64,000 bases of DNA from a bacterium (GCA_037143195.1 JBAWZD010000003.1:5333-69332), one strand, 5' to 3'; shown: positions 34,460-51,064, counted from the first letter of the stretch. Notes: generated by a model not told the origin, from the sequence alone. Made by a program: numbers and translations.

Positions 34460-35257
34460 ATGGAACACACAGAATACCTTCCGTTTGCGCTCGACCTTGC
34501 TCGCGATGCTGGTGGCATCATGCGACAAAATTTCATGCTCGGCATGAAGAAAGAATGGAAGAGTGATGCGACACCGCTCACCGAGACAGATACCAAAATT
34601 CACACACTCGTGTGTGATTCAATTGCGCGTGCATTCCCAACTCACTCCGTGCTCTCCGAAGAGGGGGACGAAGCAGCCAAAACTCCAACGACTGAATATG
34701 TGTGGGTGTGTGATCCTGTCGACGGGACGCACAATTTTGCGCACGGTATTCCGACTGCGACATTTGCACTCGCACTTGTGCAGAACGGCAAACCAATCGT
34801 CGCCGTCATTTACGATCCATTCATGGACCGACTTTTCTACGCCGAAAAAGGCAAAGGTGCATTCATGAACAACAAGCAGATACATGTTTCTGACAATCCG
34901 ACAGTCAAAAAGACCGTGATTGGTATCGGCAAATGGTCAAACGACACTACAAATCTTTTTCCTGTTGGCGAACAATTGCGCGAACGTGGTGTGCGTCTTG
35001 TGACGGGACTTTCGATTGATTACATGGGAGCACTTGTCGCTGCAGGAGAATTTTCTGCGACAATTTTCGGGGGGCTGTCTCCTTTTGACACAGTCGCAAT
35101 TCAGCTTCTAGTGGAGGAGGCAGGGGGCAAGGCAACAGACCTTACAGGAGGCACTGTAGAGCGCTACGATCGGGAAGTTCCAGGACAGCTTGCGACGAAT
35201 GGATTGGTTCACGATGAGATTTTGCAACTCATAAAGGAATATGGAGCACGAGCCTAA
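34460..35257 (+). CDS. Inositol monophosphatase family protein (SuhB-like)
   Basis: 'WVCDPVDGTHNFAHG' IMPase motif and 'GGKATDL'. Confidence 0.8.
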   Translation: MEHTEYLPFALDLARDAGGIMRQNFMLGMKKEWKSDATPLTETDTKIHTLVCDSIARAFPTHSVLSEEGDEAAKTPTTEYVWVCDPVDGTHNFAHGIPTATFALALVQNGKPIVAVIYDPFMDRLFYAEKGKGAFMNNKQIHVSDNPTVKKTVIGIGKWSNDTTNLFPVGEQLRERGVRLVTGLSIDYMGALVAAGEFSATIFGGLSPFDTVAIQLLVEEAGGKATDLTGGTVERYDREVPGQLATNGLVHDEILQLIKEYGARA

Positions 35258-36041
35258 AATCGAAGTGACTATCCCAATCCTCTACGAGGATGCGTATTGT
35301 ATGTGTATCAACAAGCCTGCGGGCCTTGCGGTACATGGAGATGGAAAGGCAAATGAGTTCACGCTTGCAGATTGGATTCTTGAATATCATCCAACACTCG
35401 CGCCTGTCGGTGAACCACTTCGAGTGCGGATTGGTGGGGAAGAGATTACGGTGCCGAAGCCAGGGATTGTGCATCGCCTCGACAAAGATACCTCCGGAGT
35501 CATGGTGCTCGCAAAGACTCACGCAGCATATGAATTCTTCAAACAACAGTTTCAAGAACGAGAGATACAAAAAATGTATCTCGCCTTTGTGTATGGGTGG
35601 ATCAAAGAAGATGCGATGGAGATTACGGGATCGATTGGCCGTGATTCGAGCAACATTAGACGATGGACTGTTTCCAAAAATGCGCGTGGAACTTTGCGTG
35701 AAGCTATAACAAACATCCGTGTGTTGAAACGATTTGGTCATTCTGCGAATGGTCATGAATATGACGGCAAGGGAAGTACCGAAGAGGGAACGTTTTCTCT
35801 CGTTGAGGCTCGACCAAAGACCGGCCGTACGCATCAAATTCGCGTGCATATGCGCTCCGTAAACCATCCTATCGTCGGAGATTCACTGTATGCGCCTAAG
35901 CGTGGTGAAGGGCTCGGCTTCGTACGCCAGGCACTTCACGCGCGCGAGCTTACGCTCGCGCTCCCGTCCGGTCAAACCATTACCGTGCAAGCCCCGTTCC
36001 CCGAAGACTTCCAAAAAGCCCTCGAGGTTGCAAATGCATAA
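35241..36041 (+). CDS. RluA-family pseudouridine synthase
   Basis: Catalytic motif '[15 protein letters not shown]'. 'GRTHQIRVH' motif. Confidence 0.8.
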
Positions 36042-36511: not shown

Positions 36512-36595
36512 GCGCAGGTGGCGAAACTGGTAGACGCACTACCTTGAGGTGGTAGCACCCGCAAGGGTATGGAAGTTCAAGTCTTCTCCTGCGCA
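36512..36595 (+). tRNA. tRNA-Leu (anticodon GAG)
   Basis: 84 nt. Acceptor GCGCAGG/CCTGCGC, anticodon stem CTACC/GGTAG, loop TTGAGGT, long variable arm, T-arm GGAAG-TTCAAGT-CTTCT. Confidence 0.75.
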
Positions 36596-36810
36596 CATAA
36601 ATGAAAAACCGCACAGATTTATCTGCGCGGTTTTTCATTTACTCTGGGCTAAGGCAAGGCGAGCCAACTGCTTGGCTCGCCCGAAGACTTGAAAGCCGCA
36701 GCGATGCCGCCTTGGCGGCCGCGAGGCGGGGTCGCGAACACTTAGTCCGCACAGGGCGTAATCGCCCGAGCAGACTTAGTGATTCGTGACCAAGTCTTCT
36801 CCTGCGCACA
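36578..36810 (+). repeat. 20-bp perfect direct repeat of the tRNA-Leu 3' end (36578-36597 and 36791-36810) bracketing a 193-bp GC-rich insert
   Basis: 'caagtcttctcctgcgcaca' occurs twice. The intervening segment is about 60% GC versus about 47% in the surroundings and contains several perfect hairpins. Confidence 0.7.
36604..36635 (+). terminator. Hairpin terminator immediately 3' of tRNA-Leu
   Basis: AAAAACCGCACAGAT..ATCTGCGCGGTTTTT. Confidence 0.5.
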
Positions 36811-36814
36811 ACGT

Positions 36815-36844
36815 AAAAAGACCTTGTTGATCAAGGTCTTTTTT
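36815..36844 (+). terminator. Rho-independent terminator
   Basis: AAAAAGACCTTG-ttgat-CAAGGTCTTTTTT. Confidence 0.65.
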
Positions 36845-36887
36845 CTTGCCCCAAAACAAGATTTGAATCTGCTATACTTCCAAAAGT

Positions 36888-38642
36888 ATGGAAAGTCAAA
36901 ATTGTCAGAATTGCAAAATGGCCTTCACGATTGATTCGGAGGACCTTTCGTTTTATGAAAAAATTCAGGTGCCACAGCCTACATTCTGCTATCTCTGCCG
37001 AGCTCAAAGAAGAATGTCGTTCCGAAACGAGCGGAAACTTTTTCGCGTGAAGGATGCCTTTACAGGAAAGGAGATATTTTCTTTATATCCGCCGGAAGCA
37101 AATTGTAAGGTTATTACGTCCGAAGAATGGTATGGAGATTCTTGGGATGGCACGGAATATGGACACGATTACGATTTTTCTAGGCCATTTCTCGAACAGC
37201 TTTTTGAACTTGATAAAAAAGTGCCAGTCCTGAATCTCAATGTCGCCTTGATGCAAAGGAGCGATTATTGTGCGAATGCCGACAACCTCAAAGATTGCTA
37301 TTTGGTATTCGCTTCTCAATTCACCGAGAACAGCCTTTATTGTACGAGTACAAACGAATCGAAAGATTGCATGGATACTTCGCTGATAACTGGCGGAGAG
37401 CGATGCTATGAGTGTTTCTGGATACAAAATTGTTCTCAATGTTACTTCACTATTATGTCTGTTGAGTCCCGAAATCTTTGGTTCTGTCGGGATTGTAAGG
37501 GATGCAGTGATTGTTTTGGTTGTACGAATTTACGCCAATCTTCGTACTGCATTTTCAACAAGCAATACACCAAAGAGGAATATAAAAAGGAGATCGAAAA
37601 ACTTCGTCTTGATACAAGAACAGGGATTAAGGAAGCCCATATGAAGACCAGAGCTTTTTGGGATACTCAGATCGTGAAATATCAACAAGGTTTGCGTAAT
37701 TTGAATACGACTGGATCGTATGTTACCGATTCTAAAAATATACATGATAGTTTCTTGATCCGTGAAGGCGAGAATTTGCGGTATTGCCAAAATATGGAGA
37801 TACCCGGAAACAAAGACTGCATGGATGTATATGAGTGGGGAGAGAAAACAGAGCTTTGCTATGAGACGAGCGGTGTCGGAACGAATGCGTATAACGTGCA
37901 GTTTTCCTACGATTGTTGGCCGAGCGTGAGCAGCTGTCAGTATTCCATGCATCTGCGCGGATGTTCCGATTGTTTCGGTTGCGTAGGTTTAAAGAAAAAA
38001 CAATACTGTATTTTCAATAAACAATATTCAAAAGAAGAATACGAAGCGCTTGTCCCAAAAATTATTGAACAGATGAATACGTTGCCGTATGTGGACGCAA
38101 AAGGCAGAATATACAAATATGGAGAGTTCTTTCCCATCGAGCTTTCTCCGTATGGATACAACAATACTGTTGCCGCTGACTTCTTCCCGATTACAGATGC
38201 GGAGGCGAAAGTGCAAGCCTATCCGTGGATAGAAGTTGAGCGGAATACATACGCTATCACTAAAAAACAATCTGATCTTGCGGACTCGATTCATGAAGTT
38301 GATGATTCAATCTTGAAAAAAATTATTGAGTGCGAACAGTGCGCAAAGCCATATCGAATACTTCAAAATGAGCTTAGTCTTTTAAGACGAGAAAGCCTGC
38401 CTTTGCCAACGCTTTGTATTGAGTGCAGGCACGCTCGCAGGATTAGTGATCGTTTGAAGATTAATCTTTATGAACGAATATGTATGTGCGGTGGTTTGAA
38501 CGATACGACAATGACATACAAAAATACACGAACTCATATACACGGTGGCAATTTCTGCGGTGAGAAATTCAAAACGGGATATTCCTCGGATCGCCTCGAG
38601 ATTGTCTATTGCGAGCAGTGTTATCAAAACGAAGTGGCTTAA
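36888..38642 (+). CDS. Cysteine-rich multi-zinc-ribbon protein, uncharacterised family (paralog A)
   Basis: 584 aa with more than 40 Cys. N-terminal 'CQNC...FYEKIQVPQPTFCYLCRAQRRMSFRNER'. Repeated 'GCSDCFGCxxLxxxxYCIFNKQYxKEEY' units. C-terminal CxxC...CxxC ribbon. Confidence 0.65.
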   Translation: MESQNCQNCKMAFTIDSEDLSFYEKIQVPQPTFCYLCRAQRRMSFRNERKLFRVKDAFTGKEIFSLYPPEANCKVITSEEWYGDSWDGTEYGHDYDFSRPFLEQLFELDKKVPVLNLNVALMQRSDYCANADNLKDCYLVFASQFTENSLYCTSTNESKDCMDTSLITGGERCYECFWIQNCSQCYFTIMSVESRNLWFCRDCKGCSDCFGCTNLRQSSYCIFNKQYTKEEYKKEIEKLRLDTRTGIKEAHMKTRAFWDTQIVKYQQGLRNLNTTGSYVTDSKNIHDSFLIREGENLRYCQNMEIPGNKDCMDVYEWGEKTELCYETSGVGTNAYNVQFSYDCWPSVSSCQYSMHLRGCSDCFGCVGLKKKQYCIFNKQYSKEEYEALVPKIIEQMNTLPYVDAKGRIYKYGEFFPIELSPYGYNNTVAADFFPITDAEAKVQAYPWIEVERNTYAITKKQSDLADSIHEVDDSILKKIIECEQCAKPYRILQNELSLLRRESLPLPTLCIECRHARRISDRLKINLYERICMCGGLNDTTMTYKNTRTHIHGGNFCGEKFKTGYSSDRLEIVYCEQCYQNEVA

Positions 38643-38730
38643 CGATTCGTCGACCCTTTATTCCATAGAGCGACAATAGGGAGCACAACATAAAAATTTA
38701 GTTTTTGAATCTGCTATACTTCTGGAAGGT

Positions 38731-40425
38731 ATGGAAACAAGAAATTGCCAGAATTGCCAAAAAGATTTTACGATCGAACCGGAGGATTTTGATTTCTATG
38801 AAAAGATTGCAGTTCCTGCCCCAACGTTTTGTCCTGATTGTCGGTTTCAGCGCAGGCTAGCATTTCGCAACGAACGCAATTTTTACAAGCGTGTCTGTGA
38901 TCTCTGCGGCACAAGCGTCGTTTCGCGAGTTTCGCCTGACAAAGCGTACCCGATGTATTGCTCAAAATGCTGGTGGAGTGACAAGTGGGACGCACATTCA
39001 TACGGGAAGGATTACGATTTTTCGAGGCCCTTTTTTGAGCAGTGGAGAGAACTCTTTTTTAGCGTCCCGCATATCTCCATCATGAATTCGAACTGTGTAA
39101 ACAGTGAATGGGTCAATCAAGAAAACGATAGCAAGAACTGTTACATGAACGTCGGCGGTCTCTATAATGAAGATTGCGCCTATTGCACATATGGAGTGCA
39201 AAGCAAGAATTGCGTCGATAATTATTGGATACTCAACTCAGATCATTGCGCGCATAATGTGCACTGTGAGCGATGCTACTTCACTCATTATTCTTATGAA
39301 GTCCATGACTCCCTCCATACGCTCTTTTCGTATGACTGCCGCAATTGTAATAATGTCATTGGTTGTGCTGGATTGCGCAATAAGCAATACTGCATCTTTA
39401 ACGAACAACATTCGAAAGAATCATATGAGGAATTTCTGAAAGAACATCCATTTTCATCGGCGAGCGGTGTCTCTTGGTGGAAAGAAAAGATCATTCCCAT
39501 TTGGAACAATTCTCCGCATCGCGAAAATACCATATTCAAATCACTCGATGTTACTGGTAATGCCGTCTCTGAATCAAAAAATTCTCACAACGCATGGGAA
39601 TCCATTAAACTTGAGAATACGAAGAACATCTACATCTCTGGGTGGATTCGGGAAGGATACGATTGCTCCTATTTTGGAGCGGCCGAACTTGTATATGAAT
39701 GTGCACATAGTGGAGGGGGATATAATTCCAAAGGGCTATTGCTGTGCCTGTCGAATGATCCGTTGAAAAAAATCACGATCAATACGGTTGAGTACTCAGC
39801 GATGGTATCGGCACTCAGTAATTGTTTTGGTTGTGTCGGAGTTCGTGGTGCTGAGTACGTAATTTTAAACAAAAAATATACCAAGGAAGAATATCTTGAG
39901 TTGCTGCCGAAAATAAAACTACATATGAAAGATATGCCGTACATCGATAAAAAGGGTAGAGTATACGGGTACGGAGAATTCTTTCCGGCAGAGTTCGCAT
40001 CGTTTGGGTACAACGAAACCACAGCCCCAGAAGTATTTCCGTTGACAAAGGAAGAAGCGCTTAAGGAAGGATTTTCATGGAATGAATATGTATCTGACAC
40101 GAAATACAAATTTTCTGATTATGAAATCCCTGACGATATTACAAATGTAGAGGATGATATTCTGCAAAAGATTTTGAAATGTGAGGTTACAGGCAAGGCC
40201 TACCGTATTATTCCTGCCGAACTTTCTTTTTATCGTCACACAGGATTGCCGATCCCAAGAACGGCTCCGGCGGAGCGTCATGACAAGCGTTTTCAGATGC
40301 TCTTGCCTTGCAAGCTCTTTGACCGAGTGTGTGACAGTTGTAAAAAAGAAATACGCACACCGTACACCACAGGCCGCCCCGAAATTGTCTACTGCGAAGT
40401 GTGTTATCAGAGAGAGGTATTATAG
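38731..40425 (+). CDS. Cysteine-rich multi-zinc-ribbon protein, uncharacterised family (paralog B)
   Basis: 564 aa, with the same architecture and motifs as 36888..38642 ('CQNC...FYEKIAVPAPTFCPDCRFQRRLAFRNER', 'CFGCVGVRGAEYVILNKKYTKEEY'). Shares an upstream 'ttgaatctgctatacttc' element. Confidence 0.65.
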   Translation: METRNCQNCQKDFTIEPEDFDFYEKIAVPAPTFCPDCRFQRRLAFRNERNFYKRVCDLCGTSVVSRVSPDKAYPMYCSKCWWSDKWDAHSYGKDYDFSRPFFEQWRELFFSVPHISIMNSNCVNSEWVNQENDSKNCYMNVGGLYNEDCAYCTYGVQSKNCVDNYWILNSDHCAHNVHCERCYFTHYSYEVHDSLHTLFSYDCRNCNNVIGCAGLRNKQYCIFNEQHSKESYEEFLKEHPFSSASGVSWWKEKIIPIWNNSPHRENTIFKSLDVTGNAVSESKNSHNAWESIKLENTKNIYISGWIREGYDCSYFGAAELVYECAHSGGGYNSKGLLLCLSNDPLKKITINTVEYSAMVSALSNCFGCVGVRGAEYVILNKKYTKEEYLELLPKIKLHMKDMPYIDKKGRVYGYGEFFPAEFASFGYNETTAPEVFPLTKEEALKEGFSWNEYVSDTKYKFSDYEIPDDITNVEDDILQKILKCEVTGKAYRIIPAELSFYRHTGLPIPRTAPAERHDKRFQMLLPCKLFDRVCDSCKKEIRTPYTTGRPEIVYCEVCYQREVL

Positions 40426-40491: not shown

Positions 40492-40848
40492 ATGAATGAA
40501 CTAACCACTGAAGAAAAAAGGGTCATCATCGACAAAGGAACAGAGGCACCGTTTGTCGGAGAGTATGTGAACACCAAGGAGACTGGGGTGTATGCGTGTC
40601 GACAATGCGGCGCACCGCTCTATGATTCAAAAGACAAATTTGAATCGACGTGTGGCTGGCCGAGTTTTGACGACGAGATTCCGGGTGCTGTGCACAAGAG
40701 TCTCGACGCTGATGGAATGCGCACCGAGATCACGTGCGCGAAGTGTGGGGGACATCTCGGTCACGTATTTAAGGGTGAGCACTTCACCGATAAAGATATT
40801 CGTCACTGCGTGAATTCAATTTCACTCAGATTTATTCCAGGAAAATAA
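40492..40848 (+). CDS. msrB: Peptide-methionine (R)-S-oxide reductase MsrB
   Basis: 'CGWPSF' and 'HLGHVF' motifs. Two CxxC pairs (zinc site). Confidence 0.85.
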
Positions 40849-40851
40849 TCT

Positions 40852-41340
40852 ATGATCAAAACAGCGGTATTTGCCGGAGGATGTTTTTGGGGCTTACAAG
40901 ATTTGATCCGAACACAAGCAGGTGTTGTTTCGACACGTGTAGGGTATACCGGCGGGAGCGTTCCAAATCCGACATACGAACGCCATACGGGACATGCAGA
41001 AGCAGTCGAGATTACTTACGACACTGACAAGACATCGTACAAAAATCTTCTCGATTTCTTTTTTCAAATTCACAATCCAACGACACTCAATCAGCAGGGG
41101 AACGATCGCGGTACTTCGTACCGCTCCGCTATTTTCTATGCGACACCCGAAGAGAAAAAGGAAGCTGAGGATTTCATCAGCATTGTGAACGATTCAAAAC
41201 GCTGGCCTGATCCTGTCGTCACCACACTTGAACCGCTCACCGAATTCTATCTCGCCGAGGACTATCACCAAGATTACCTACAAAAGCATCCGGGTGGCTA
41301 TACCTGTCACGCGATTTGGTTTGATAGTTACCTTACATAA
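40852..41340 (+). CDS. msrA: Peptide-methionine (S)-S-oxide reductase MsrA
   Basis: '[12 protein letters not shown]' active-site motif. 162 aa. Confidence 0.85.
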
Positions 41341-41397: not shown

Positions 41398-43125
41398 ATG
41401 AAAGCATATAAACGATTGCGCGCGTGTGTTCCGGTACTCCTTATCATTTTCGTATTCGGCGTTACTCCATCACTCGTCTCGGCTGATGTTGTTATTACCA
41501 ATTATCCAGCTCCGTCAGGTAATCCTCAATACCACCAGCTTGCGTCCGATGGGACCAATATTTGGATTACACAGAATGGTCTCGGAGTTACCGAAGTGAG
41601 TCCGAGAGGCACAGTCCTTCGTACACTCACAGCGCCAGATTGGACTCCTTTTCGTATTGCATTCGATGGCACTAACATGTGGACCGCTGATGCTGGCGAT
41701 ACTGGAGGAATGGGCATTGTCTCTAAGATTAGTCCAACGGGAGTCATTACCAATTATACTGGTACAGGTGCTACCCCAATGGGTATCGCATTCGATGGCA
41801 CCAACATGTGGACTACAAATTCAGATGACAATAGTGTAACTAAAATTACTCCAAGTGGAACGATGACCACGTACTCAGGCACTGGTCCTCGACCGCTCAC
41901 GCTCGCATTCGATGGCACCAACATGTGGACATTAAACATTGGTGATGGCAGCGTTACCAAGGTTACTCCAAGTGGAACGATGACAACTTTTTCTGGGTTG
42001 CCAGTAGATCCGAGTGGGTCTGTGCCAGTCGACATTGCATTCGACGGTACGAATATGTGGACAGCAAACCAAACTGGAACAGTCACCAAGATTAGTCCAA
42101 CTGGCACGATGACTACCTATAGCGGTGCTGGAATAACACCAGACGGTATCGCATTCGACGGTACGAATATGTGGGTAACAAATCCAGGAGACGGAAGTGT
42201 CACGAGAGTGAGCCCTAGTGGTGTCATGACAAATTATACTGGAGTCGGTAACACAAGTACGGATCAGGGGAGCCCTGTTGGAATTACTTTTGACGGTAGA
42301 TATCTCTGGGCCGTCAGTGCAATGGCTTTGACAAAAATTGATCCGTCTGGAACTGCAACGACTACTACGACGAGTACAACTACCGGTACAACAACAAATA
42401 CGACCACCACTACCGCAACCACCGCCACTACTATTCCTCCAACAGTGGCAACAGACGCACTTTCAGCGGGAGATTTTACTGCAACAACTGCGAAGCTGAA
42501 GGGTCATGTCGTAAGTATGGGAAGTAGTTCGAGTATCAGTACATCATTGACGTACTGGTCAAATGCGACTTCTCCAATAACAGTGCCAGCAGGATCGTTT
42601 AGCGGAACAAATACATTTTCTGTGTCGGTTTCAGGTCTTACTTGCAACACGACCTATTCTGTCTATGCCACAGGAATTACGTCGGCAGGAACGGCAAATG
42701 GATCGGTGGTTGGGTTCACGACGAGTCCATGTGTAGCCGTAGCAACGACAAGTACGACAACAGGAACAACCACGACACCACCAAGTACACCAACTACACC
42801 AACTACACCAACAACGAATTCGACAACTCCACAAACAGCAACTACGAACACGACGGTTTCAAGTGGGGCGATTACCGCTCCAACTGTTGATCAGTTGAGT
42901 ACACTTCCTTCCCTCAGTGTTGGAAAAACTGGCGACGCAGTGCTCACACTTCAGTCGTATCTCTATGCCAACAAGCTTTTGACTGTTGCTCCAACGGGAT
43001 ACTACGGAATGATGACAAAGGCCGCAGTTGCAGAATTCCAGAAGCAAAATGGAGTTGACGCTATTGGTGTCTTTGGACCAAAGACACGAACGGCGCTGGT
43101 GCATTCACTGCAAGTTACTCAGTAG
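41398..43125 (+). CDS. Secreted cell-surface protein with a beta-propeller-like repeat array, Thr-rich linkers, an Fn3-like module and a C-terminal peptidoglycan-binding domain
   Basis: Signal peptide. Seven tandem roughly 40-aa repeats ('GSVTKVTPSGTMTTYSGTG...IAFDGTNMWT'). Thr-rich tracts. C-terminal PG_binding_1-like 'LQSYLYANKLL...GYYGMMTKAAVAEFQKQNGVDAIGVFGPKTRTAL'. Confidence 0.65.
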   Translation: MKAYKRLRACVPVLLIIFVFGVTPSLVSADVVITNYPAPSGNPQYHQLASDGTNIWITQNGLGVTEVSPRGTVLRTLTAPDWTPFRIAFDGTNMWTADAGDTGGMGIVSKISPTGVITNYTGTGATPMGIAFDGTNMWTTNSDDNSVTKITPSGTMTTYSGTGPRPLTLAFDGTNMWTLNIGDGSVTKVTPSGTMTTFSGLPVDPSGSVPVDIAFDGTNMWTANQTGTVTKISPTGTMTTYSGAGITPDGIAFDGTNMWVTNPGDGSVTRVSPSGVMTNYTGVGNTSTDQGSPVGITFDGRYLWAVSAMALTKIDPSGTATTTTTSTTTGTTTNTTTTTATTATTIPPTVATDALSAGDFTATTAKLKGHVVSMGSSSSISTSLTYWSNATSPITVPAGSFSGTNTFSVSVSGLTCNTTYSVYATGITSAGTANGSVVGFTTSPCVAVATTSTTTGTTTTPPSTPTTPTTPTTNSTTPQTATTNTTVSSGAITAPTVDQLSTLPSLSVGKTGDAVLTLQSYLYANKLLTVAPTGYYGMMTKAAVAEFQKQNGVDAIGVFGPKTRTALVHSLQVTQ

Positions 43126-50767: not shown

Positions 50768-51064
50768 GTCAGAAATCGTAGCAAACGACCTTTTTAGAAA
50801 AATGAAAAAGTGGGGATTACTTTTTTTCTAGTAAAAAAACCTTAAAAATGTATAATAAAAATACAATTTAATAGATTAGACCTAAACTCATTCGGCAACG
50901 AGTGAGCATGGTTAATGAAGTCAAGAGATGCATAAAGAACCCATCAAAATTGGGGTTGCATCTCTTGCCGTATCTGGAAACGGATACGGAGGGTCTAATA
51001 GCCCTCACCTTATTTTGGTGGGCTTTTTGCGTCTATATCAAGGATTATTAATTAACTCAAAGTT

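Follow-up and report, generated by a model that had tools for sequence, protein, structure and literature searches.

The window, a stretch of 64,000 nucleotides, carries on its plus strand two adjacent genes, here called A (36888..38642; 584 aa with 37 Cys, or 6.3%) and B (38731..40425; 564 aa with 31 Cys, or 5.5%). Their products are full-length paralogues with 37% identity (BLASTP, E 4e-129). A first-pass annotation of the sequence had proposed a tandem paralogous pair of these lengths, and both ORFs were found where it had placed them; the N-terminal motifs it quoted occur in A and in B. Its ‘dozens of CxxC pairs’ were overstated, with 13 counted in A and 10 in B. Both proteins are built by double internal duplication, with a basic double zinc-ribbon module at each end and, between these, two homologous solenoid-like units that are followed by an invariant aromatic motif. 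The basic termini (pI about 9) contrast with an acidic core. A signal peptide is absent from both proteins, and the first CxxC starts at residue 6. The pair lies directly 3′ of a tRNA-Leu gene, of which the last 20 nt are repeated 213 nt downstream (193 nt between the copies, with A and B outside the repeats). GC content at the pair (0.40-0.44) is slightly below that of the flanks (0.46-0.51). As previously noted, msrB (40492-40848) and msrA (40852-41340) are located directly downstream of B.

The N-terminal double-ribbon module of A (36888..37145, plus strand, residues 1-86; pI about 9), delimited by alignment and hhalign, comprises a treble-clef-type ribbon 1 (CQNC...FYEK..P.PTFC..CR.QRR..FRNER) and a degenerate ribbon 2. 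The C-terminal module (38316..38642, plus strand, residues 477-584 and the stop codon) consists of a ribbon 1 with the pattern CE.C.K.YRI...EL......LP.P..C..CR and a ribbon 2 ending in EIVYCE.CYQ.EV. The earlier remark that the C-terminal ribbon mirrors the N-terminal one is borne out by hhalign, which related the N and C modules with a probability of 99.3% (E 1e-20), compared to 0.4% for a control pair. Of the four sites, numbered N1, N2, C1 and C2 from N- to C-terminus, A has N1, C1 and C2 intact and no Cys left in N2, whereas B has N1, N2 and C2 intact and has lost three of the four Cys of C1. Across 116 representatives, the outer sites N1 (C6, C9, C34, C37) and C2 (C532, C557, C575, C578) are 93-98% conserved per column, and nearly all members keep all four Cys of both. 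Two CxxC pairs are thus conserved as putative metal ligands at N1 and at C2, as treble-clef zinc fingers require. Losses at the inner sites are lineage-specific; a rule by which arrays would pair complementary losses (A-type with B-type) was not seen in a regex classification that probably under-calls sites. The expected conservation of Cys across homologues hence holds for the terminal ribbons but not for the interior of the protein, where it drops to 10-60% outside two cap motifs. Among 32 family members, 14 match PF23477 (zf_Tbcl_2; best E 1.7e-7) and six match PF13451 (zf_Tbcl). A matches neither model, and B matches PF23477 (17.1 bits against a cut-off of 27) and NCBIfam TIGR04272 only weakly, so a zf_Tbcl-type domain is present at the level of the family and sub-threshold in A and B.

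Solenoid-like unit 1 of A (37242..37607, plus strand, residues ~119-240) consists of 12-residue repeats with Cys, Ser or Thr at every third position and ends in a cap (DCxxCxxCFGCxxLRxxxYCIFNKQYxKEEY) and a helix. Unit 2 (37704..38081, plus strand, residues ~273-398) is homologous to unit 1 (hhalign probability 99.8%) and ends in the same cap motif and a helix. Autocorrelation in unit 1 amounts to 0.4-0.6 for Cys at multiples of three and to 0.72 for Cys/Ser/Thr at a lag of 12. Two ‘GCSDCFGC..L....YCIFNKQY.KEEY’ units had been claimed for each protein; they are clear in A (residues 205-232 and 358-385) but degenerate in B (NCNNVIGCAGLRNKQYCIFNEQHSKESY and ALSNCFGCVGVRGAEYVILNKKYTKEEY), which lacks one of the four cap Cys. 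The second cap is degenerate. Family-wide, the cap DCxxCxxCFGC retains four Cys in 66 of the 116 representatives and three in 37 more. The interior Cys give way to Ser, Thr or Val with a strict period of three, and so resemble residues packed into a solenoid core more than redox thiols. The aromatic motif region of A (38082..38177, plus strand, residues 399-430; MPY.D..GR.Y.YGEFFP.E.S.FGYNE) is the best-conserved non-Cys segment across all paralogues and contains the motif YxYGEFFP...GYNE, with Y409, Y411, G412, F414, F415, P416, Y424 and N425 as invariant alignment columns, and 62% of the columns in this region are both conserved and common to the A and B lineages. Invariance across paralogues extends to many Tyr, Phe and Trp residues and to many polar ones, including D96, Q104, K135, D163, R216, N224, E295, D313 and E322.

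The AlphaFold models are confident overall, with a pTM of 0.80 for A and 0.89 for B (pLDDT 85.8 for B). In A, pLDDT climbs to 90-98 from the unit 2 cap onward, while the solenoid regions are modelled with moderate confidence only (pLDDT 52-75). Foldseek comparison of both models to the PDB gave no significant match (best E 0.75 and 2.4), the only weak fold echoes being left-handed beta-helix enzymes (E ≥0.75, TM ≤0.25). Against viral models, Foldseek returned only small zinc-ribbon phage proteins (E 0.03), and searches of PDB sequences found no match, whether the query was one sequence or a profile.

Upstream of A, a perfect 12-bp stem precedes a T run (36815..36843, plus strand; AAAAAGACCTTG-ttgat-CAAGGTCTTTTTT). 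By its sequence, in which the inverted repeat is 100% complementary, this hairpin is likely a terminator that shields gene A from transcription arriving from upstream. A 19-mer follows, TTTGAATCTGCTATACTTC (36862..36880, plus strand), with an extended -10-like box TGcTATACT at 36870-36878, 9 nt before the ATG of A; an exact second copy (38704..38722, plus strand) places the box at 38712-38720, 10 nt before the ATG of B. The shared element reported earlier is hence real and exact, with 0.03 chance matches expected, but its true coordinates are 36863-36880 and 38705-38722 (1-2 nt from those first given) and the identity extends to 19 nt. Its interpretation as a shared promoter or operator is right only in that the box resembles a promoter: TGcTATACT is the generic extended -10 of the leaderless genes of this genome. 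Many other start codons in the window have the same type of box 0-11 nt upstream, an SD-like motif precedes only four of its 65 genes, and a canonical -35/-10 promoter scan returned nothing at gene starts. Given its position 9 nt before the ATG, the box suggests a leaderless or near-leaderless A transcript, and each gene of the pair may be driven by its own copy of such a promoter. Only about 8 extra bases of the 19-mer (TTTGAATC) set the pair apart. No copy of the 18-mer, allowing up to three mismatches, occurs in 3.3 Mb of related sequence (both strands counted), so the element is local rather than a regulator site conserved in the family. The idea of an operator shared by family genes in general was likewise rejected, as their upstream regions elsewhere contain only generic -10-like boxes or operon junctions.

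The pair belongs to a family of at least 5,063 clusters at 50% identity (7,989 and 7,112 word-index matches for A and B, respectively). All members with an organism name are from the ultra-small Patescibacteria (CPR), and every annotation reads ‘hypothetical’. These bacteria represent a large share of bacterial diversity, have tiny genomes and carry lineage-specific proteins that are mostly unexplained. The family stands out among them as it is large, strongly conserved and present in many copies per genome despite genome reduction. No named domain had been assigned in the first-pass annotation, and for the core this is still the case: the ~390 residues of the two solenoid units and the aromatic motif are without a Pfam or NCBIfam model, and only the terminal ribbons touch zf_Tbcl and zf_Tbcl_2. 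No model of Pfam, NCBIfam, PHROGs or PADLOC scored above threshold; the sole echo was phrog_15341, of unknown function (E 8e-4). A tblastn search against 50,697 phage records gave no match, inspection of unusually long members for informative domain fusions found none, and nothing relevant was found in the literature on the family, its Pfam accessions or zinc ribbons in Parcubacteria. At the least, these results define a new domain architecture that merits its own family model.

Family genes occur in same-strand arrays of two to six copies in 48 out of 80 loci. Their spacing of 0-55 nt makes these arrays probable operons. Neighbouring copies have a median identity of 41%, and the window pair is a small instance of this family-wide arrangement of old paralogues. 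One MAG holds at least 11 copies (loci L022 and L035), of which one is split into two ORFs; together they amount to about 19 kb, or roughly 2% of the genome if a size of ~1 Mb is assumed. Among the many named Patescibacteria lineages that were sampled, orthologues share 55-79% identity, with purifying selection in all regions, and orthologue groups are conserved throughout (majority-residue frequency of about 0.7-0.8). Columns that are conserved within but different between the A and B lineages reach their highest shares in the N2 ribbon (42%), the solenoid 1 body (20%), the acidic region 431-476 (17%), the solenoid 1 cap (16%) and C1 (14%), a pattern that indicates purifying selection on sub-functionalised paralogues. 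A and B are real, ancient paralogues; the tandem duplication noted at first sight is not recent, and its upstream element is absent from the related loci.

The family has one recurrent kind of neighbour only, namely soluble T4CP-like (TrwB/VirD4/HerA) ATPases. Of 80 loci, 31 have a gene with TrwB_AAD_bind, T4SS-DNA_transf, TraG-D_C or DUF87 domains within 6 kb and 26 have one within two genes, against a rough chance estimate of about 3% that assumes about two T4CP genes per genome. In all six fetched loci of the closest B orthologues (75-78% identity), ATPase genes are found beside family genes, and in the three longest the arrangement is complete, running ATPase (490) - two to three family genes - ATPase-ZnF (775-830). 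The long ATPase bears a zf_Tbcl_2 ribbon (E 1e-13) of the same kind as the family ribbons, and a tblastn search of the ATPases against the window matched the ribbons of B (E 3e-4). Nonetheless, the linkage is partial: among the 29 loci flanked by 3 kb or more on each side, only 9 have an ATPase within two genes; conversely, when 80 metagenome loci were centred on relatives of the long ATPase, a family gene was present in only 12 (commonest ATPase neighbours there: a ~450-aa membrane protein and a sigma-r4/HARE-HTH protein); and no T4CP-like ATPase was found in the 64-kb window. Conserved gene order among related lineages is also possible without a functional link. A published survey counted 5,713 VirD4-type T4CPs in 2,918 Patescibacteria genomes, only 148 of which are near virB4, and entertained exaptation of these proteins as a possibility (PMC12102498).

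Our tentative interpretation is that A and B are paralogue-specific zinc-stabilised adaptors, or clients, of soluble T4CP-like (FtsK/HerA-superfamily) ATPases. They would be two old, separately conserved members of a Patescibacteria-wide cytoplasmic family of zinc-stabilised repeat proteins. The ribbon modules at the ends would form the constant parts, probably as docking sites for a partner protein or nucleic acid, and the solenoid-like units are candidates for the part that confers specificity, since many of the conserved differences between paralogues fall within them. As adaptors or clients, the proteins would act with the ATPases encoded beside the family in many genomes, and in the window genome the pair may have moved out of this ATPase context. 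The analysis shows the architecture, the internal duplications, the pattern of conservation, the tandem arrays and the partial gene linkage to the ATPases; zinc binding, ribbon docking and a functional interaction of A and B with the ATPases are inferred. A bolder and less probable extension is that the family provides the missing partners for the orphan coupling-protein ATPases, of which there are roughly two per genome, with the array setting cargo choice or regulation of a T4SS-independent translocase. Such a translocase would be membrane-tethered and exapted in ultra-small cells, with an expandable array of zinc-ribbon/solenoid adaptors of a new fold. The placement beside ATPases offers a testable lead to the role of thousands of orphan T4CPs and of the cysteine-rich family itself.

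The same neighbourhoods lend themselves to another, improbable reading, in which the proteins are effectors, secreted or injected as cargo of the neighbouring coupling-protein ATPases and used on a host cell by an epibiotic bacterium. The adjacency of multigene tandem arrays to T4CP-like genes, the MAG with at least 11 copies including a split one, and the largely host-dependent lifestyle of Patescibacteria (PMC12102498) are compatible with it. Yet, a signal peptide is absent, the 55-79% orthologue identity with purifying selection in all regions is unusual for effectors, folds with several zinc sites are ill suited to export that depends on unfolding, and nearly all Patescibacteria T4CPs are encoded far from any virB4 channel gene (PMC12102498). 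It is about equally unlikely that the proteins are iron-sulfur or other metal-cluster proteins (for electron transfer or catalysis) that use the CxxCxxCxxC caps and the Cys ladder, or enzymes with an active site in the aromatic/acidic region. The three or four Cys kept by most caps and the many invariant polar residues would fit, but ferredoxin-type CxxCxxCxxxCP spacing and Fer4, radical-SAM or other Pfam matches are lacking, B lacks one of the four cap Cys, the second cap is degenerate, and no redox partner recurs in the neighbourhoods.

The first-pass annotation had instead suggested a redox or metal-homeostasis role alongside MsrB and MsrA, i.e., zinc storage, a thiol-based oxidative-stress sensor or a zinc-dependent holdase chaperone. 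This role, suggested by the many Cys and by the msrB-msrA genes next to B, is improbable as well and finds no support beyond the window genome: homologues of msrA or msrB, the co-occurrence of which had been proposed as a check, are present in none of 166 related loci (1.67 Mb in total). The conserved Cys are structural ribbon ligands, the interior ones are freely replaced, and A, with 584 aa, 6% Cys and abundant aromatics, is unlike metallothioneins. A role in proteostasis might draw on one sub-clade whose cassette sits between dnaK/grpE and dnaJ (L003, L005, L014, L017, L028 and L031), but this context is limited to close relatives of A (56-64% identity), and Hsp33, DnaJ-CR or thioredoxin-like Pfam matches are absent. 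A tempting but wrong link to methionine sulfoxide reductases is hereby removed. Least probable of all, the genes could be cargo of a (formerly) mobile cassette, an integrative element with T4CP-like genes and insertion sites at housekeeping loci and tRNA genes, as the variable contexts (dnaK/dnaJ; rpoC/dnaG in L001; just after tRNA-Leu in the window), the duplicated tRNA-Leu end and the lower GC content might suggest, but no integrase, relaxase or transposase adjoins the arrays, the repeat copies are only 193 nt apart and do not enclose A and B, and the paralogue lineages look ancient and vertically inherited.

Compared to known systems, several Cys-rich or repetitive folds were rejected. Left-handed beta-helices of the hexapeptide-repeat type ([LIV]-G-x4) have periods of 6 and 18 instead of the 3 and 12 seen here, and neither Pfam nor Foldseek connects them to the family at a meaningful score. 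Ferredoxin-type 4Fe-4S proteins differ in that the cap CxxCxxCxxC lacks the Pro, and no Fer4 or related Pfam match occurs in 32 members. Metallothioneins are small, with 15-30% Cys in CxC/CC/CxxC clusters and few or no aromatics, whereas A and B are longer, have about 6% Cys and invariant aromatics, and are modelled as a multi-domain fold (pTM 0.80-0.89). The DnaJ cysteine-rich domain (CxxCxGxG) and Hsp33 (CxC...CxxC) are Cys-rich and zinc-dependent, and one family sub-clade is encoded between dnaK and dnaJ, but the family motif differs (CxxCxxCFGC) and matches neither module in Pfam or NCBIfam. The Tenebrio molitor antifreeze protein is a narrow Cys-ladder beta-solenoid with 12-residue coils that is small, secreted and disulfide-bonded. 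It would resemble the family in the 12-residue period with small Cys/Ser/Thr residues at fixed, inward-facing positions, yet no sequence or Foldseek relationship was found and the family proteins are cytoplasmic, 560-600 aa long and flanked by ribbons. T4CPs (VirD4/TrwB/TraD) and their orphan homologues in Patescibacteria are recurrent neighbours that have a ribbon type in common with the family. The family proteins, however, are not ATPases and show no homology to components or known substrates of a T4SS. The neighbouring ATPases are without a membrane anchor, but are often accompanied by a separate membrane protein of ~450 aa or fused to it. The four terminal ribbons of the family are probably of the type of zf_Tbcl (PF13451), zf_Tbcl_2 (PF23477) and TIGR04272 (CxxC-x17-CxxC), described as ‘probable treble-clef’ zinc fingers, with scores below threshold in A and B. 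Known carriers of this domain, which is without an established function, are mostly small proteins or bear it as a C-terminal tag; its models cover about 35-45 residues each, and the family adds a core of ~390 residues beyond them.

The two genes under study, A (36888-38642, forward strand, 584 aa) and B (38731-40425, forward strand, 564 aa), occupy exactly the ORFs assigned to them in the first-pass annotation. They are indeed a tandem paralogous pair: their BLASTP alignment spans the whole of both proteins, with 37% identity (E 4e-129). Neither protein scores above threshold against the Pfam, NCBIfam, PHROG or PADLOC models; the sole model signals are sub-threshold ones, between the terminal ribbons and the 'probable treble clef' zinc fingers (zf_Tbcl_2, TIGR04272). 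With 8,000 candidates scored per query, at least 7,989 matches were found for A and at least 7,112 for B, and a profile run against 1.84 billion representatives yielded 5,063 clusters (50% identity) at E 1e-3 or better, 2,190 of them at E 1e-30 or better. Nearly all homologues match over their full length (about 550-630 aa). Their annotation is almost always 'hypothetical protein' or missing, apart from a few generic names like 'zinc-ribbon domain containing protein' or 'YbaR (Trm112 family)'. Every match bearing an organism name stems from Patescibacteria, including Paceibacteria, Nomura-, Wolfe-, Jorgensen-, Brenner-, Gribaldo-, Kuenen-, Lipton- and Staskawiczbacteria, among others. Separate series of orthologues exist for A (59-75% identity) and for B (50-79%), and the duplication separating them is therefore old.

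Tandem duplication, previously taken as a hint of functional importance, is nothing special in this family. Among 80 loci sampled from one-genome-per-species contigs, with ORFs called by us, 48 carry same-strand arrays of two to six full-length copies; the pair in the window therefore represents the family's usual arrangement at its smallest. The MAG JAKAKW01 holds six copies in one locus (L022) and a further five or more in another (L035), one of the latter being split into two ORFs. Array members are 0-55 nt apart or overlap, and adjacent copies share a median identity of 41% (range 29-70%). As this equals the family-wide median, the arrays themselves are old. Further copies are split over two adjacent ORFs (L012:5992-7752, L028:5965-7752, L056:6001-7766 and L073:1790-3535), which may reflect frameshifts, pseudogenes or assembly errors.

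The protein is made up of two internal duplications (alignments A1 and A2). A double-ribbon module sits at each end of the protein, and the two modules (N-terminal ~85 and C-terminal ~105 residues) are homologous, with an hhalign probability of 99.3% (E 1e-20) against 0.4% for a control pair. Each combines a CxxC...F(Y/R)..h..P.P..C..CR..RR ribbon with a second one, CxxC-x15-17-(V)YCxxC. Both end modules are basic (pI about 9), and the region between them is acidic. The second duplication comprises the units at ~119-240 and ~273-398 (hhalign probability 99.8%, E 3e-28). In unit 1, cysteines fall only at every third position (autocorrelation 0.4-0.6 at all multiples of 3, -0.24 elsewhere), and the autocorrelation of Cys/Ser/Thr peaks at 0.72 at lag 12. 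Such a pattern is the sequence signature of a putative narrow solenoid, with its small residues predicted to point inward. Each unit closes with a cap, DCxxCxxCFGCxxLRxxxYCIFNKQYxKEEY, followed by a helix. An aromatic motif (MPY.D..GR.Y.YGEFFP.E.S.FGYNE) follows unit 2 and forms the best-conserved non-Cys segment, with 62% of its columns conserved and common to the A and B lineages. The AlphaFold predictions are, as models, confident overall for both A (pLDDT 79.9, pTM 0.80; 32 sequences) and B (pLDDT 85.8, pTM 0.89; 149 sequences).

The 'dozens of CxxC pairs' initially reported were an overstatement: 13 are present in A and 10 in B, out of 37 and 31 cysteines in total. Conservation of these cysteines across homologues holds for the ligands of the outer ribbons, N1 and C2 (93-98%), but interior cysteines outside the caps are retained at 10-60% only. 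The inner ribbons are lost along lineages: all four cysteines of N2 are missing in every sampled A orthologue, and in every sampled B orthologue C1 is down to two cysteines at most, in general to a single one. All four ribbon sites are retained in roughly one in four family representatives. Interior cysteines are swapped for Ser, Thr or Val and look structural from these alignments; that the cysteine-rich proteins would be Fe-S proteins or enzymes seems unlikely.

Directly downstream of the pair lie msrB (40492-40848) and msrA (40852-41340), an adjacency from which a role in redox or metal homeostasis had been suggested. The adjacency is real in the window, but the linkage is not conserved, with msrA and msrB absent from all 166 related loci (1.67 Mb in total), and we regard such a role as improbable. 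Directly 3' of msrA lies the gene of a 575-aa protein (41398-43125) whose N-terminus resembles a signal peptide. This protein has about eight repeats of the 'FDGTNMWT' type, long linkers rich in Thr and a peptidoglycan-binding-like segment at its C-terminal end; it is probably a surface protein. Further along, at 50879-51006, a LOOT RNA (RF03000) match scores 76.8 bits and so clearly exceeds the gathering score of 46.4.

Clustering of all neighbours yielded one recurrent partner, P-loop ATPases matching TrwB_AAD_bind, T4SS-DNA_transf, TraG-D_C and DUF87/HerA, and thus resembling type IV coupling proteins (T4CPs). A short type (about 485-520 aa) and a long type (about 610-830 aa, with a zf_Tbcl_2 ribbon at its C-terminal end, E 1e-13) occur, both lacking an N-terminal membrane anchor. 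An ATPase lies at most 6 kb away in 31/80 loci and within two genes in 26/80. Around the closest B orthologues, ATPase genes sit beside family genes in all six loci fetched, the three longest of which (L081, L084, L085) read short ATPase, two to three family genes, long ATPase, with gaps of at most 55 nt. In Nomurabacteria-like relatives of A, dnaK/grpE and dnaJ flank the ATPase-family cassette. When the ATPases were searched against the window by tblastn, matches were confined to the ribbons of B itself (E 3e-4), implying a ribbon type common to ATPases and B. The association is partial: where ample flanking sequence was available to either side, an ATPase occurs within two genes in only 9/29 loci, and the 64-kb window contains no T4CP-like ATPase. 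In the reverse view, a family gene occurs in only 12 of the 80 loci around metagenomic relatives of the long ATPase, where the commonest companions are a ~450-aa membrane protein (43/80), which seems to form a fusion with the ATPase in L039 and L041, and a sigma-region-4/HARE-HTH protein (29/80). Other family neighbours are varied housekeeping genes, e.g., rpoC and dnaG (L001), aminoacyl-tRNA synthetases and rluA. In three other loci, a family gene is closely preceded by one for an RluA-type pseudouridine synthase (L022:3-617, L023:2000-2806 and L036:1-210). The window has such a gene at 35241-36041, and the roughly 850 nt between it and A hold rplS and tRNA-Leu; synteny with this gene is a second signal, though a weak one. 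The ~450-aa companion carries membrane helices at its N-terminus and matches no Pfam family, and a further ATPase companion is a ~175-aa membrane protein; these were seen in the ATPase-centred loci L087-L166 (e.g., L145:4490-5842, L114:3067-4095) and in L020, L026, L042, L055, L058 and L078. Together with the ATPases, these companions have the appearance of a membrane-tethered translocase module that has not been described before in Patescibacteria.

Tentatively, A and B may be cytoplasmic, zinc-stabilised repeat proteins whose constant basic ribbon ends would dock to a partner or nucleic acid and whose solenoid pair would confer paralogue-specific recognition, the proteins acting as adaptors or clients of T4CP-like ATPases. 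This model draws on the operons with ATPases, the common ribbon and the conservation of each paralogue lineage in every region. It also draws on the conserved-but-different columns, which are commonest in N2 (42%), the solenoid 1 body (20%) and the acidic region 431-476 (17%), followed by the solenoid 1 cap (16%) and C1 (14%). That the proteins would instead be secreted effectors is improbable too. The remaining probability falls to something else.

Upstream of both genes, TTGAATCTGCTATACTTC occurs exactly (36863-36880 and 38705-38722; chance expectation 0.03 matches) and nowhere else in the window with three mismatches allowed; the identity of the two copies runs 19 nt. The shared element reported in the first-pass annotation is thus real, 1-2 nt from the positions given there. 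TATAAT-like hexamers in this genome cluster 0-11 nt before start codons (21 versus 0-4 per 4-nt bin further upstream) and only 4/65 genes in the window have a Shine-Dalgarno-like motif, so leaderless or near-leaderless mRNAs appear to be the main mode. The TGcTATACT part of the 19-mer is the generic extended -10 box of this genome, 9-10 nt before each ATG, and only TTTGAATC is extra. In the 166 related loci the element is absent with up to three mismatches allowed, and family genes of relatives sit within operons. A shared promoter is therefore reasonable, whereas a conserved operator is unsupported. Ahead of the promoter of A lies a perfectly paired hairpin followed by a T run (36815-36843).

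Further upstream, CAAGTCTTCTCCTGCGCACA, the 3'-terminal 20 nt of tRNA-Leu(gag) (36578-36597), is repeated exactly 213 nt downstream (36791-36810). The copies enclose a bidirectional terminator hairpin (36598-36641) and GC-rich sequence. The RNA fold of this GC-rich part, covering 36642-36812, reaches -90.3 kcal/mol (z = -6.6 versus shuffles) and ends in a tRNA-like 3' part, with no Rfam family at threshold. The region could be an integration scar or an unrecognised structured RNA. That the pair is cargo of a mobile cassette is the least probable of the alternatives considered.

Among known systems, VirD4-type T4CPs have been surveyed in Patescibacteria, with 5,713 counted in 2,918 genomes; only 148 of these T4CPs lie near virB4, and the authors left exaptation possible (PMC12102498). 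The core, overall architecture and array habit of the present family matched no described family in model libraries or the searchable literature, in agreement with the initial view, which could not assign it to a named domain. The terminal ribbons belong to zinc-finger families that are already known and functionally uncharacterised. What is new here is the protein family and its architecture, the novelty being that of an uncharacterised family and not of a demonstrated mechanism.
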